Below the pieces are notes generated by a model. It saw only the letters and a program-made list of their open reading frames with translations, did no database searches and was not told where the DNA came from. From assembly GCF_003334815.1 (NCBI RefSeq), contig NZ_QOWO01000041.1: 33,046 nt of DNA; one strand, 5' to 3'. This stretch comes from Escherichia coli (GTDB lineage: Bacteria; Pseudomonadota; Gammaproteobacteria; Enterobacterales; Enterobacteriaceae). Both the position numbers and the translations under genes were made by a program. Below are positions 3,155-5,850 of this stretch, piece after piece; within the stretch, counting starts at the first letter, position 1; every line of letters begins with the position of its first letter.

Positions 3155-3607
3155 CTGGTAGCCTAGGGAAAACAGTACGAGAACGACGCCAGAACTCTGT
3201 TTGAATTCACTTCCGGCGTGAATGTTACTGAATCCCCGATCATCTATCGCGACGAAAGTATGCGCACCGCCTGCTCTCCCGATGGTTTATGCAGTGACGG
3301 CAATGGCCTTGAGCTGAAATGCCCGTTTACCTCCCGGGATTTCATGAAGTTCCGGCTCGGTGGTTTCGAGGCCATAAAGTCGGCTTACATGGCCCAGGTG
3401 CAGTACAGCATGTGGGTGACACGAAAAGATGCCTGGTACTTTGCCAACTATGACCCGCGTATGAAGCGTGAAGGACTGCATTATGTCGTGGTTGAGCGGG
3501 ATGAAAAGTACATGGCGAGTTTTGACGAGATGGTGCCGGAGTTCATCGAAAAAATGGACGAGGCACTGGCTGAAATTGGTTTTGTATTTGGGGAGCAATG
3601 GCGATGA
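3155..3607 (+). pseudogene. exo: Lambda exonuclease (exo) 5'-truncated remnant with an in-frame amber codon near the homology start
   Basis: ORF 3218-3607 encodes ...[57 protein letters not shown]...GFVFGEQWR, the C-terminal ~150 aa of lambda Exo. Homology continues upstream in frame to about 3155 ([17 protein letters not shown]) with TAG at 3164-3166. The N-terminal ~75 aa of Exo are absent. Confidence 0.75.
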
Positions 3608-3786
3608 CGCATCCTCACGATAATATCCGGGTAGGCGCGATCACTTTCGTCTACTCCGTTACAAAGCGAGGCTGGGTATTTCCCGGCCTTTCTGTTATCA
3701 GAAATCCACTGAAAGCACAGCGGCTGGCTGAGAAGATAAATAATAAACGGGAGGCGGTATGCACAAAGCATCTCCTGTTGAGTTAA
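3598..3786 (+). CDS. Lambda orf60a-like small protein
   Basis: 62-aa ORF directly after the exo stop, in the position and orientation of lambda orf60a; recalled similarity [21 protein letters not shown].... Confidence 0.55.
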
Positions 3787-3950
3787 GAACGAGTATTGAG
3801 ATGGCACATAGCCTTGCTCAAATTGGAGTCAGGTTTGTGCCAATACCAGTAGAAACAAACGAAGAATTTCATACGTTAGCCACATCCCTTTCACAAAAGC
3901 TGGAAATGATGGTGGCGAAAGCAGAAGCAGATGAGAGAGACCAGGTATGA
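3759..3950 (+). CDS. Lambda orf63-like small protein
   Basis: 63-aa ORF in the lambda pL-operon accessory region; the start may be an internal ATG. Confidence 0.5.
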   Translation: MHKASPVELRTSIEMAHSLAQIGVRFVPIPVETNEEFHTLATSLSQKLEMMVAKAEADERDQV

Positions 3951-3960
3951 CAACCACTGA

Positions 3961-4242
3961 ATGCATTTTCCTGGCAGCGGACTTCATATTCTGTGTGCTT
4001 ATGCTTGCCGACATGGGGCTTGTTCAGTGACACCTCAGCAAGAAAACGCCCTTCGCAGCATTGCCCGTCAGGCTAATTCTGAAATCAAAAAAGCCAGACA
4101 GCAGTTTCCGGATAAAAACGTCGATGACATTTGCCGTAGCGTACTGAAGAAGCACCGCGAAACGGTAACGCTGATGGGATTCACACCGACTCATTTAAGC
4201 CTGGCAATCGGCATGTTAAACGGCGTTTTTAAGGAACGGTGA
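3961..4242 (+). CDS. Lambda orf61-like small protein (start uncertain; GTG at 4027 is an alternative)
   Basis: ORF containing ...TPQQENALRSIARQANSEIKKARQQF.... The track ORF has 22 poorly coding-like N-terminal residues. Confidence 0.45.
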   Translation: MHFPGSGLHILCAYACRHGACSVTPQQENALRSIARQANSEIKKARQQFPDKNVDDICRSVLKKHRETVTLMGFTPTHLSLAIGMLNGVFKER

Positions 4243-4340
4243 ACATGAAAAGCAAAATCATCAGGGAGCTACAGGCTCCTTTTTTATTATTCGCATTCAC
4301 CCTCAAGCGTATTAACCAACAATTCAGGGATTAATGAAAG

Positions 4341-4562
4341 ATGGCAGACATCATTGATTCAGCATCAGAAATTGAAGAATTACAGCGCAACACAGCAATA
4401 AAAATGCGCCGCCTGAACCACCAGGCTATATCTGCCACTTATTGTTGTGAGTGTGGCGATCCGATAGATGAACGAAGACGCCTGGCCGTTCAGGGTTGTC
4501 GGACTTGTGCAAGTTGCCAGGAAGATCTGGAGCTTATCAGTAAACAGAGAGGTTCGAAGTGA
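4341..4562 (+). CDS. TraR/DksA-family zinc-finger protein (lambda Orf73-like)
   Basis: 73 aa with C4 zinc-finger spacing CCECG...CRTCASC, typical of TraR/DksA C4-type proteins. Stop overlaps the ea22 GTG start (GTGA). Confidence 0.7.
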   Translation: MADIIDSASEIEELQRNTAIKMRRLNHQAISATYCCECGDPIDERRRLAVQGCRTCASCQEDLELISKQRGSK

Positions 4563-5110
4563 GCGAAATTAACTCTCAGGCACTGCGGGCCAAGGCAGAA
4601 AAAGCAACGTGTGGTGAGTGGTCGCTCGAATATGGAGAGAGCCGATTTGATGGTGATGATGCGCTAATTCATCGTGAAGTTGCTGGATATATTCCTATTT
4701 GCAGAATTGAAGGAGCACATCCAGAAAGCGGTTTCGATGAAGATTTCCAAATGGAACAGCAGGCCAATGCTGAATTCATCGCCGCAGCCAATCCCGCTAC
4801 CGTCTTGGCGCTGCTGGATGAGCTGGAAAGAAACCAGCAATACATCAAACGCCGCGACCAGGAGAACGAGGAGATTGCGTTAACGGTAGGGAAGTTGCGC
4901 GTTGAGCTTGAGGCAGAAAAACAGCGGGCAAAGGATCTGTTTATGGAAAATGCTCGGCTTAAGTCAGGTATAGCCGGTCTGATACACCTCGGTATTCGAT
5001 ATGCAGATGTTGAGGTCATGAGAATTGCTGGAGATGCCCAGCTTTCTACCCCATGCACTGACAGCATCATAAACAGCATTGCAACAGGCATTCGCATCAA
5101 AGGAGAGTGA
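4559..5110 (+). CDS. ea22: Ea22-like protein (183 aa) with predicted central coiled coil
   Basis: MSEINSQALRAKAEKATCGEWSLEYGESRFDGDDALIHREVAGYIPIC... followed by a heptad-rich segment (LALLDELERNQQYIKRRDQENEEIALTVGKLRVELEAEKQRAKDLFMENARLK). Position matches lambda ea22. Confidence 0.7.
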   Translation: MSEINSQALRAKAEKATCGEWSLEYGESRFDGDDALIHREVAGYIPICRIEGAHPESGFDEDFQMEQQANAEFIAAANPATVLALLDELERNQQYIKRRDQENEEIALTVGKLRVELEAEKQRAKDLFMENARLKSGIAGLIHLGIRYADVEVMRIAGDAQLSTPCTDSIINSIATGIRIKGE

Positions 5111-5312
5111 TATGAGCAGGAATACGGGTTTGTAAAAGATAACGCTTGTGAAAATGCTGAATTTCGCGTCGTCTTCACAGCGATGCCAGAGTCTGTAGTG
5201 TCAGATGATGACCGTACTCAAACATCGGGTTGAGTATTATCTTACTGTTTCTTTACATAAACATTGCTGATACCGTTTAGCTGAAACGACATACATTGCA
5301 AGGAGTTTATAA

Positions 5313-5594
5313 ATGAGTATCAATGAGTTAGAGTCTGAGCAAAAAGATTGGGCGTTATCAATGTTGTGCAGATCCGGTGTCTTGTCTCCATGCAGACATC
5401 ACGAAGGTATTTATGTAGATGAAGGTATAGATATAAAGTCGGCATACAAATATTCCATGAAGGTTTATAAGTCTAATGAAGACAAATCCCCATTCTGCAA
5501 TGTGCGAGAAATGACTGATACCGTGCAAAATTATTATCACGAGTACGGTGGAAACGATACTTGCCCTCTCTGTACAAAACATATAGATGATTAA
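5313..5594 (+). CDS. ea8.5: Ea8.5-like protein (93 aa), Cys/His-rich
   Basis: 93-aa ORF between ea22 and xis, same length and position as lambda Ea8.5; contains C...C...H and C...C motifs. Confidence 0.7.
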   Translation: MSINELESEQKDWALSMLCRSGVLSPCRHHEGIYVDEGIDIKSAYKYSMKVYKSNEDKSPFCNVREMTDTVQNYYHEYGGNDTCPLCTKHIDD

Positions 5595-5614
5595 ACCCAA
5601 TATTACATAACAAT

Positions 5615-5640
5615 CCTCGCACTCGCGGGGATTTTTTTTA
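5615..5640 (+). terminator. Rho-independent terminator downstream of ea8.5
   Basis: CCTCGC-ACTC-GCGGGG stem-loop followed by ATTTTTTTT. Confidence 0.6.
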
Positions 5641-5682
5641 TCTGAACTCACTACGGCGAGTTTTGTTTTATGGAGATGATAA

Positions 5683-5850
5683 ATGCACTTCCGAGTCACA
5701 GGAGAATGGAATGGAGAGCCATTCAACAGAGTTATCGAAGCCGAGAACATCAGCGACTGCTATGACCACTGGATGCTGTGGGCGCAGATAGCACATGCAG
5801 ACGTAACCAATATTCGAATTGAAGAACTGAAAGAACACCAAGCCGCCTGA
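5683..5850 (+). CDS. Lambda orf55-like small protein (55 aa)
   Basis: ORF not in the supplied track (below its length cutoff): MHFRVTGEWNGEPFNRVIEAENISDCYDHWMLWAQIAHADVTNIRIEELKEHQAA. Lies between ea8.5 and xis where lambda carries orf55. Confidence 0.5.
   Translation: MHFRVTGEWNGEPFNRVIEAENISDCYDHWMLWAQIAHADVTNIRIEELKEHQAA

Follow-up and report, generated by a model that had tools for sequence, protein, structure and literature searches.

Does the survival of a row of small, intact genes in a crippled prophage mean that these genes serve the host, or themselves? The question is raised by a 33,046-nucleotide stretch of Escherichia coli DNA (the window), in which a sequence-only reading had recognized a lambda pL-operon accessory module within a defective prophage and had taken its retention as a hint of a host-beneficial or selfish function. 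Our analysis leads to a plainer answer: with a probability of roughly 85%, the module is the exo–xis cassette of a lambda-like prophage at attB-lambda that was stranded by a recent deletion, is intact by chance and not by selection, and persists as a near-silent passenger. The features to which the argument refers are the following.

3159..3160, no strand: deletion junction, where the ninX-side homology ends and the exo-side homology begins, with a 2-bp 'TA' shared
3161..3607, + strand: 3' remnant of exo, a pseudogene, with about 78 N-terminal codons gone; the window's own TGA is at 3164–3166
3604..3786, + strand: orf60a (DUF1317), 60 aa, intact; phrog_1998, E=1e-33
3668..3690, + strand: terminator-like hairpin in orf60a, the published predicted t1 (PMC4195576)
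3759..3950, + strand: orf63 (DUF1382), 63 aa, intact; phrog_292, E=4e-35
3961..4242, + strand: orf61 in its long form, as is typical of Stx phages, 93-aa ORF; phrog_303 spans residues 1–93
4255..4292, + strand: terminator hairpin 4263–4281 (t2) overlapping the predicted weak promoter p1; sequence identical to that in PMC4195576
4341..4562, + strand: orf73, TraR/DksA-family C4 zinc-finger protein, 73 aa, intact; Pfam PF01258, E=1.2e-8, residues 33–64
4559..5110, + strand: ea22, 183-aa allele, intact; full-length Pfam Ead_Ea22 match and phage EaD match
5313..5594, + strand: ea8.5, 93 aa, intact; Pfam PF20735 (Lambda_ea8_5), E=4.9e-48
5612..5633, + strand: terminator-like hairpin 3' of ea8.5, from the hairpin scan
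5683..5850, + strand: orf55, 55 aa, intact; phrog_676, E=5e-40
5840..5859, + strand: terminator-like hairpin where orf55 ends, the published t5 (PMC4195576)
5890..6108, + strand: xis, intact; flanking context outside the cassette
6086..7156, + strand: int, intact; flanking context outside the cassette
7230..7244, − strand: lambda att core GCTTTTTTATACTAA, exact match; prophage/chromosome boundary beside ybhC

Identity and integrity of the cassette genes

The cassette lies entirely on the + strand and runs from the exo remnant (3161–3607) through seven ORFs (3604–5850), each of them found where the sequence-only reading had placed it, to xis (5890–6108); the start at 3598 given in that reading is an in-frame ATG upstream of the orf60a start at 3604. 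Nucleotide identity to lambda is 97.3% over window positions 3161–4587 and 98.3% over 5087–7244, where the lambda homology stops, and the ea22 body (4587–5087) is the sole divergent part. The cassette genes differ from their lambda counterparts by two to five amino acids each, with no stops and no frameshifts, every ORF is matched by a PHROG profile, and the ORFs other than ea22 are full length relative to both lambda and these profiles. The order orf60a–orf63–orf61–orf73–ea22 is that of lambda and Stx phages, and position, strand and gene order make the cassette a member of the lambdoid exo–xis region; linkage to pL and N antitermination was not found, so that it is a member by descent, with the operon context gone. 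Gene identity and intactness are thus observed directly, and the gene names originally proposed are borne out by lambda identity, gene order and PHROG matches. For orf60a, orf63, orf61, orf73, ea22 and orf55, pN/pS among IMG/VR alleles is 0.14–0.32, which means purifying selection on these genes among phages, although the figures pool phage and prophage alleles and relaxation in defective remnants is invisible to them; for ea8.5, the differences among these alleles are too few for a judgement. Judged by their sequences, the cassette ORFs are real genes and not chance ORFs.

Orf60a carries two amino-acid differences relative to lambda (pN/pS 0.32), and Orf63 matches over residues 2–63 PDB entry 8DSB (E=4.1e-32), the NMR dimer of lambda Orf63 (PMC10869804). 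In orf61, pN/pS is 0.90 in the first 22 codons vs 0.09 in the last 71, and 120 of 122 loci have ATG or GTG at the position of codon 4027; the true start is probably the GTG at 4027, which would give a 71-aa product. The poly-A run of orf61 (around 4086) is one base shorter in the window than in reference lambda, and at least 120 IMG/VR contigs have the window-type run vs only 2 with the lambda-type run, one A longer. By this count, the orf61 of reference lambda is a rare frameshifted allele, and functional work on Orf61 is best done with the long form, as carried by the window. The RefSeq (PGAP) name "cell division protein ZapA" for the 71-aa Orf61 was rejected (Pfam PF05164 matches at E=0.02, 15.6 bits, over 34 residues), and Orf61 has no NCBIfam match. 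The orf60a, orf61 and orf63 genes have been reported as pro-lytic (PMC6213356, PMC5575149, PMC10869804), and expression of Orf63 reduces host survival (PMC10869804).

The assignment of orf73 to TraR/DksA-like proteins holds. The translation contains a CxxC-17-CxxC zinc finger (C35/C38 and C56/C59), its N-terminus M-A-D-I-I-D-S-A provides the DxxDxA motif (D3, D6, A8), and its E-R-R-R aligns with E-A-R-R of TraR; the DxxDxA and RR-pair motifs and their RNAP contacts have been defined previously (PMC9239242). Residues 1–64 align to the TraR chains 5W1S and 6N57, and 71 of the 73 residues are identical to lambda Orf73, Y34 and A49 being those that differ. NCBIfam searches with the cassette ORFs returned nothing beyond sub-threshold TraR models for Orf73, and since TIGR02419 (C4_traR_proteo) scored 55.6 bits, below the curated cut-off of 59.7, Orf73 was assigned to the broader TraR/DksA family only. 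Lambda Orf73 is an RNAP-binding inhibitor of rRNA and r-protein promoters that, unlike TraR, activated none of the promoters tested; it slows host growth and raises burst size, and its homologues complement a dksA-null strain (PMC9239242). The orf73–orf55 block is also linked, as cited in PMC9239242, to inhibition of host replication initiation.

RefSeq (PGAP) labels ea22 a pseudogene ('incomplete; missing C-terminus') in strains 52F4 and TUM1887, a label that we reject. The protein matches Pfam PF13935 at E=2.4e-32, with residues 2–152 on positions 1–139 of the 139-position model, and end to end it shares 91% identity with EaD of the P22-like phage Gally (OV696608.1). The allele is a common one, with 94–99% identity to more than 100 clusters of proteins that are likewise 183 aa long; intact 182-aa lambda-type alleles, too, are tagged 'incomplete'. 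Together with the ZapA name of Orf61, this tag is one of two misleading RefSeq (PGAP) labels in this locus. A long N-terminal alpha/beta domain is followed by a coiled coil (about residues 79–147) and a short helical C-terminus; the AF2 model, with a helix at 79–147, agrees with the long coiled coil that had been foreseen. The protein ends in ...IRIKGE, i.e., in the (K/R)-G-E tripeptide which, along with a central coiled coil, is described for Ea22 proteins (PMC7093339). In BLASTP, only residues 1–123 align to lambda Ea22 (residues 1–78), the lambda-type C-terminal domain (lambda residues ~79–182; NMR structure in PMC10834534) was not found in the window Ea22, and no match to it was found among PDB chains. 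Ea22 has been reported as pro-lysogenic (PMC7093339, PMC10834534).

Ea8.5 had been described as Cys/His-rich, with which both the Pfam Lambda_ea8_5 match and the match to the solved homologue PDB 2M7A (E=3e-18) agree; C27, H30, C84 and C87 are conserved in the alignment and may act as zinc ligands. The reference structures of the family are PDB 2M7A and 2M7B, and NMR structures of Ea8.5-family proteins, as of Orf63, have been published. Orf55 has no Pfam match and belongs to a narrow enterobacterial family (98 homologue clusters); its AF2 model (pLDDT 90) has a beta-beta-alpha-beta topology, and it has been proposed to be a T7 Gp2-like RNAP inhibitor (PMC8614690). The ORF55 that appears in the literature in an anti-defence context is a DNA ligase from phage DruSM1, with no relation to lambda-type orf55.

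The deletion and the loss of the promoter

The window is 99.98% identical to E. coli 52F4, and the prophage lies between DLP12-like late genes and ybhC. Position 3160, in the ninX remnant, directly abuts position 3161, in the exo remnant, as seen in alignments of either side, and for this reason bet through the nin region is missing; with exo short of its first 78 or so codons, the proposed loss of essential phage functions is evident. The junction 3160/3161 is present in one of 5,426 complete E. coli genomes, that of 52F4; like the absence of the early region, its existence and rarity are matters of direct observation. At the same site, strain TUM1887 has a prophage whose cassette, xis and int show 100% identity to those of the window and which retains exo, bet, gam, an S24 repressor, a cro-like gene, O, P and ren. 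A simple deletion from a TUM1887-type prophage does not quite account for the window, since positions 2977–3158 have no match in TUM1887; positions 2850–3160 match the ybcO/ninX-type nin region of other strains, e.g., F3_13_1_3.

Published work on functional phages describes a cassette that is transcribed leftward from pL during the first minutes of lytic growth and whose products adjust host physiology and the lysis–lysogeny decision. According to this work, Orf73 enters the RNAP secondary channel like TraR and turns off rRNA and ribosomal-protein promoters, Orf60a, Orf61 and Orf63 favor lysis, Ea22, as a coiled-coil tetramer, favors lysogeny, and Ea8.5 is a hybrid of a homeodomain and a zinc finger. 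In the present genome, an illegitimate deletion at a 2-bp microhomology has most likely removed the DNA between about codon 78 of exo and a point within the nin region, bet, gam and the immunity/replication region included, which leaves the cassette promoterless behind antisense nin/rusA sequence, in a remnant without the antiterminator for its operon. The cassette is most likely intact because the deletion is recent and by chance missed it.

The state of the transcription signals agrees with this scenario. The only established promoter of the cassette is lost, and a scan of the + strand between 2800 and 6100 found no consensus sigma-70 promoter. N is the antiterminator of the lambda pL operon; the annotation of the whole 52F4 prophage remnant contains neither an N gene nor a repressor gene. 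Rfam searches at gathering and E≤1 thresholds identified no RNA family within the cassette, and the two weak matches to Leu_leader are accounted for by the terminator hairpin at 5612–5633. Since pL, N and the repressor are gone while four terminator-like hairpins are kept, the cassette is probably a near-silent passenger. Some expression is possible because of the predicted p1 upstream of orf73 (motif TCATCA … TTTTATTAT), which is a software prediction that falls under the threshold of our scan. Most likely, the cassette is silent or nearly so, with at best weak transcription from p1 of orf73 onward.

Selection, defence or decay

The strongest rival to a stranded passenger is a domesticated regulator: the host would have kept the cassette, or the part from orf73 onward, because low-level expression from an internal promoter is beneficial, e.g., through ppGpp-independent, DksA-like tuning of rRNA synthesis or through control of replication initiation. 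The complementation of dksA-null cells by Orf73 homologues and the cited link of the orf73–orf55 block to replication initiation lend themselves to this explanation, as does the presence of the published p1 sequence just 5' of orf73, and none of the seven attB-lambda prophages sampled, six of them deletion derivatives, has a damaged orf73 or orf55. We nevertheless consider it unlikely. In these seven chromosomal prophages, xis and int, from which the host has no evident gain, equal the cassette in intactness, and the intactness of all four genes would fit mild selection and young age alike. The deletion occurs in a single genome, with zero cassette substitutions relative to its non-deleted sibling, which leaves no time for selection to show. 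Orf73 slows growth and Orf63 lowers survival (PMC9239242, PMC10869804), and constitutive expression would therefore be costly, while p1 itself overlaps a terminator and was missed by the consensus scan. Lesions in the sibling remnants, a small (n=6) and phylogenetically non-independent sample, fall in orf60a, orf63, orf61 and ea22: orf60a is deleted and orf63 clipped in F3_13_1_3, orf61 carries an IS5 insertion in YZ_2_2, and ea22 is shortened to 83 aa in FDAARGOS_1248. To read selection into small genes that survive intact in a dead prophage requires that the deletion be dated, and here the deletion is private and the divergence zero. The step from retention to benefit is thus not supported, given the private junction, the identity to TUM1887, the equally intact xis and int, the sibling lesions and the lost promoter, and we infer that the cassette is a passenger. 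Slightly more doubtful still is the possibility that Orf73, Ea22, Ea8.5 and Orf55 expressed weakly from p1 retune host rRNA transcription or replication initiation, or modulate in trans the induction of co-resident lambdoid (including Stx) prophages; in either case, the crippled prophage would have become a domesticated regulator that acts on the physiology of the host or of prophages.

It is improbable to a much greater degree that the cassette is an anti-phage defence or superinfection-exclusion module. Prophage accessory regions often house defence genes, and the segment from ea22 to xis is highly mosaic in the manner of a cargo hotspot, with other genes in place of ea8.5 in FDAARGOS_1248 and E5 and variable presence in IMG/VR loci. 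However, six of the seven cassette proteins have no match in PADLOC-DB 2.0, none of the ORFs shows an enzymatic or effector domain, the published phenotypes concern the phage's own development and not the exclusion of other phages, and the cassette is without a promoter. The match of Orf73 to PADLOC mREase_II (16.5 bits) reflects zinc-ribbon resemblance and that of Xis to mad1 a generic excisionase fold, and both were dismissed as evidence of defence; the PADLOC search thus agrees with the absence of a known defence signature noted by the sequence-only reading. Least probable of all, with next to no chance of being correct, is that the ORFs are pseudogene debris: exo is truly truncated and RefSeq tags ea22 as incomplete, but that tag also falls on intact alleles, ea22 is full length against Gally EaD, more than 100 clusters and the complete Pfam model, and the remaining ORFs have their full length by comparison with lambda and PHROG, so that the genes are intact and not decayed fragments.

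With the cassette recognized as the well-studied exo–xis block, cut from its promoter by a recent deletion, it is ordinary and not a new system. To call it an under-described system was an overstatement, as the exo–xis region is named and literature exists on every gene (PMC3824215, PMC4195576, PMC6213356, PMC5575149, PMC10869804, PMC9239242, PMC7093339, PMC10834534, PMC8614690, PMC10789677). The discovery value is small: the cassette, its gene order, several structures and the RNAP mechanism of Orf73 are all published.

Comparison with known systems

Other attB-lambda remnants with internal deletions are those of FDAARGOS_1248, IAL7250, F3_13_1_3, E5 and YZ_2_2, which share with the window the int–xis–cassette end, the porin–quuD–rusA side and a DLP12-like late region, and each of which has lost the immunity and replication region; they have deletion or IS junctions and lesions of their own, and the ninX'/exo' junction of the window is in none of them. 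The lambda exo–xis region (NC_001416, about 29118–31351) has the same position, strand, order and terminator hairpins, but is linked to pL and N, from both of which the window cassette is cut off. Lambda orf61 is frameshifted to 61 aa, whereas that of the window is the intact long form. In place of the alpha/beta C-terminal domain of lambda Ea22, the window protein has a short helical C-terminus, and its N-terminal domain is the longer of the two.

Orf73 has in common with F-plasmid TraR (5W1S, 6N57) the DxxDxA tip, the CxxC-17-CxxC finger and the RR pair (TraR R48/R49) (PMC9239242); TraR has four cysteines, whereas Orf73 of the window, like lambda Orf73, has six. EaD of phage Gally is, like the window Ea22, 183 aa long, but its neighbors differ, with EaE on the upstream and EaA on the downstream side, within an early-left region of the P22 type. 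The Stx phages Phi24B and 933W have a conserved orf60a–orf73 block (PMC8614690, PMC7093339), a long 93-aa Orf61 and a long Ea22 N-terminal region, all as in the window, and the published Stx Ea22 variants, compared above the level of single residues, have a C-terminus unlike that of the window Ea22. The ea8.5 and orf55 genes have been described as unique to lambda, a homologue of orf55 being absent from Phi24B and partial in 933W (PMC8614690), and, unlike these two phages, the window carries both genes in their lambda-type form.

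The prophage remnant and its deletion junction

The window is E. coli chromosome, with 78–12000 matching strain 52F4 at 99.98% (2 mismatches), and it carries a defective lambdoid prophage located at attB-lambda, in which the leftward, pL-transcribed strand of lambda corresponds to the + strand. The main features are:

591..1733, prophage porin gene
right of the porin gene, − strand: quuD, ylcG, rusA and a ybcO fragment
then, left to right: ninX remnant, exo without its first ~78 codons, seven small ORFs (orf60a, orf63, orf61, orf73, ea22, ea8.5 and orf55; 3598–5850, the cassette), xis, int and the att site
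3668–3690, 4263–4281, 5612–5633 and 5840–5859, + strand: four terminator-like hairpins
7230–7244, lambda att core GCTTTTTTATACTAA, immediately ahead of ybhC
7291..8574, ybhC

In the 52F4 record, the prophage portion beyond the left end of the window is debris too (lysis genes, bor and nohD, and fragments of terminase, tail tip and lom), and the annotation of the remnant includes neither a repressor nor an N gene. The pL-bearing segment is deleted and exo is truncated, in agreement with the sequence-only reading that essential phage functions have been lost. The deletion junction lies at 3160/3161, where the ninX remnant and exo meet at a 2-bp TA microhomology, and a 501-bp probe spanning it was fully matched in only one of 5,426 complete E. 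coli genomes, that of 52F4.

The nin side of the junction (2887–3160) is mosaic: homology to TUM1887, a strain with a prophage at the same site, ends at 2976 within ybcO (DUF1364; N-terminally incomplete according to RefSeq), and 2977–3160 matches a ybcO'/ninX arrangement common to the sibling prophages F3_13_1_3 and YZ_2_2. Codon 3164–3166 of the exo remnant is TGA in the window and TGG in 52F4 and lambda; this is one of the two differences from 52F4 over 11.9 kb, the other being an L/F change in Orf61 at 4218. The porin gene is intact, OmpC/NmpC-like and placed downstream of quuD in opposite orientation, a DLP12-type prophage layout, and its allele length differs between sibling prophages (1083 or 1098 nt). 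Between ybhC and ybhJ (8590–8800) there are overlapping ~100-bp repeats (8590–8691 and 8682–8784, ~92% alike), one of which matches Rfam naRNA4, a REP325-type nucleoid-associated RNA (8643–8713, − strand; 60.7 bits, gathering threshold 59.5). The right end of the window (32767–33046) holds tRNA genes and an RtT-like element (Rfam), which are ordinary chromosomal features unrelated to the cassette.

Integrity of the cassette genes

Compared with lambda, window 3161–4587 is 97.3% and 5087–7244 is 98.3% identical, and the body of ea22 (4587–5087) is the only diverging stretch. The products of orf60a, orf63, orf73, ea8.5, orf55, xis and int carry 1–5 amino acid changes each, with no frameshifts or stops, and every cassette ORF is matched end to end by PHROG profiles. 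In the phage population, pN/pS is 0.14–0.32 for all cassette genes with enough variation, which indicates that these ORFs are real genes. The earlier observation that the small genes are intact is thus confirmed.

RefSeq (PGAP) tags ea22 (4559–5110) as 'incomplete, missing C-terminus'. We reject this assignment, since ea22 is a full-length, 183-aa allele that fully covers the Pfam Ead_Ea22 model, shows 91% full-length identity to EaD from Gally, a P22-like phage, and is 94–99% identical to >100 protein clusters of exactly 183 aa. In other genomes the label is also attached to intact 182-aa alleles of the lambda type, and it is therefore an annotation artefact. The gene is mislabelled as a pseudogene also in L001, L004 (the exo-side alignment partner), L006, L129 (the ninX-side partner) and L131, the alleles being of 183 and 182 aa.

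A poly-A run in orf61 (4081–4086; ~2984–2990 in lambda, L002) has one A more in reference lambda, whose 61-aa Orf61 is a frameshifted form (PMC8614690); at least 120 IMG/VR contigs carry the run as it is in the window, against only 2 with the lambda type. The long orf61 of the window matches phrog_303 across 93 residues. Among IMG/VR alleles of this 93-aa ORF, pN/pS is 0.90 in the first 22 codons, which look non-coding, and 0.09 in the last 71, and 120 of 122 loci have a start codon (ATG or GTG) at 4027, so that the true product is probably the 71-aa protein called by RefSeq, starting at GTG 4027. The name given to this protein by RefSeq (PGAP), both in 52F4 and in lambda lysogens of K-12/BL21, is 'cell division protein ZapA', an identity that we reject because the Pfam match has an E-value of only 0.02.

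Retention and selection

The sequence-only reading took the retention of intact small genes as a hint of a host-beneficial or selfish function. On the evidence, that retention does not mean selection, or not demonstrably so. The junction is private, and the cassette (2,253 bp), xis and int are 100% identical to the copy in TUM1887, whose prophage retains exo, bet, gam, an S24-type repressor, a cro-like gene, O, P, ren and the full nin region; the two copies show zero substitutions since their common ancestor, too short a time for decay. In 7/7 chromosomal prophages examined at attB-lambda, xis and int are as intact as the cassette, and these genes bring no obvious benefit to the host of a crippled prophage. 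The sibling deletion derivatives at this site all have junctions different from that of the window, and some have lesions in the cassette.

Sibling deleted prophages at attB-lambda
FDAARGOS_1248: ren'/exo junction; ea22 shortened to 83 aa
IAL7250: ren'/orf60a junction
F3_13_1_3: rearranged; orf60a nearly gone, orf63 clipped
E5: IS3 insertion
YZ_2_2: methyltransferase'/orf60a junction; IS5 within orf61

That the immunity and replication block has been lost repeatedly matches a usual pattern, the persistence of prophage-disarming deletions. The earlier interpretation is partly supported: the gene identities stand, and the inference from retention to selection lacks support.

The cassette is matched at least in part by 393 phage records and by 4,386 of 5,426 E. 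coli genomes, and its presence in the window is therefore unremarkable. One such record, MW057783.1 ('Campylobacter phage CJLB-4', 48,361 bp), matches at 97.3% and has lambda-like coordinates and gene names; its sequence looks to be that of phage lambda, so that the Campylobacter jejuni label would reflect contamination or mislabelling. The ea8.5 slot in the ea22–orf55 interval holds a 204-aa hypothetical protein gene, a DUF2513 protein gene and fragments in FDAARGOS_1248 (L005, 7899–9602), and an LprI-family lysozyme-inhibitor-like gene in E5 (L130, 8122–8820); the ea22-to-xis interval appears to behave as a cargo-exchange hotspot.

Expression and comparison with the lambda exo–xis region

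A published description (PMC4195576) covers transcription of this region from pL, the terminators t1, t2 and t5 (all predicted) and a promoter, p1, predicted ahead of orf73; the t1, t2/p1 and t5 sequences are present in the window (3668–3690, 4255–4292 and 5840–5859). A promoter scan of the + strand over 2800–6100 found no consensus sigma-70 promoter, and an Rfam search found no RNA family within the cassette. Expression of Orf73 and Orf63 harms the host (PMC9239242, PMC10869804). The best reading is that the cassette is a promoterless, near-silent passenger, with at most weak transcription from the predicted p1; its silence we infer. The one novel reading left is very improbable: in it, expression of the stranded cassette would persist and make it a domesticated regulator, acting on the host or on co-resident prophages.

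The sequence-only reading also considered the cassette the best place in the window for an under-described system, and saw no known defence signature. The latter holds, as PADLOC gave no meaningful match for the cassette ORFs; the former is overstated, since findings on the cassette genes are published and several structures are solved. When present on a multicopy plasmid, the whole exo–xis region interferes with lysogenization and changes prophage induction (PMC3824215), and orf60a and orf61 influence induction and the decision between lysis and lysogeny (PMC6213356). For the pro-lytic Orf63, a dimer, the structure is solved (8DSB; PMC10869804), and the window protein matches it at E=4e-32. 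NMR structures exist for two Ea8.5 homologues, 2M7B and 2M7A, the latter with a match to the window protein at E=3e-18. For Orf55 there is only a speculative T7-Gp2-like model (PMC8614690); the 'ORF55' of anti-Avs reports is an unrelated ligase of phage DruSM1.

Ea22 is a pro-lysogenic tetramer; its C-terminal domains vary, and its terminal (K/R)GE is conserved (PMC7093339, PMC10834534). The window protein has in common with lambda Ea22 only the coiled-coil segment and the two ends (~12 residues at the start, 7 at the end), and by sequence it matches no PDB chain. Structure prediction, proposed earlier for this protein, gave an AlphaFold model (pLDDT 84) with an N-terminal alpha/beta domain (1–76), a helix of 69 residues (79–147) and a pair of short helices at the C-terminus, in which the alpha/beta C-terminal domain of lambda Ea22 has no counterpart.

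Orf73 of lambda is an RNA polymerase-binding inhibitor of rRNA and r-protein promoters that makes the host grow more slowly and increases burst size roughly four-fold (PMC9239242). The window Orf73 differs from it by two residues and has the DxxDxA tip, a CxxC-17-CxxC finger (Pfam E=1.2e-8) and an RR pair aligning with R48/R49 of TraR, which bears out its assignment as a TraR/DksA-like zinc-finger protein. The cassette is thus already known, the remnant that carries it is ordinary and recently deleted, and its interest is accordingly low.
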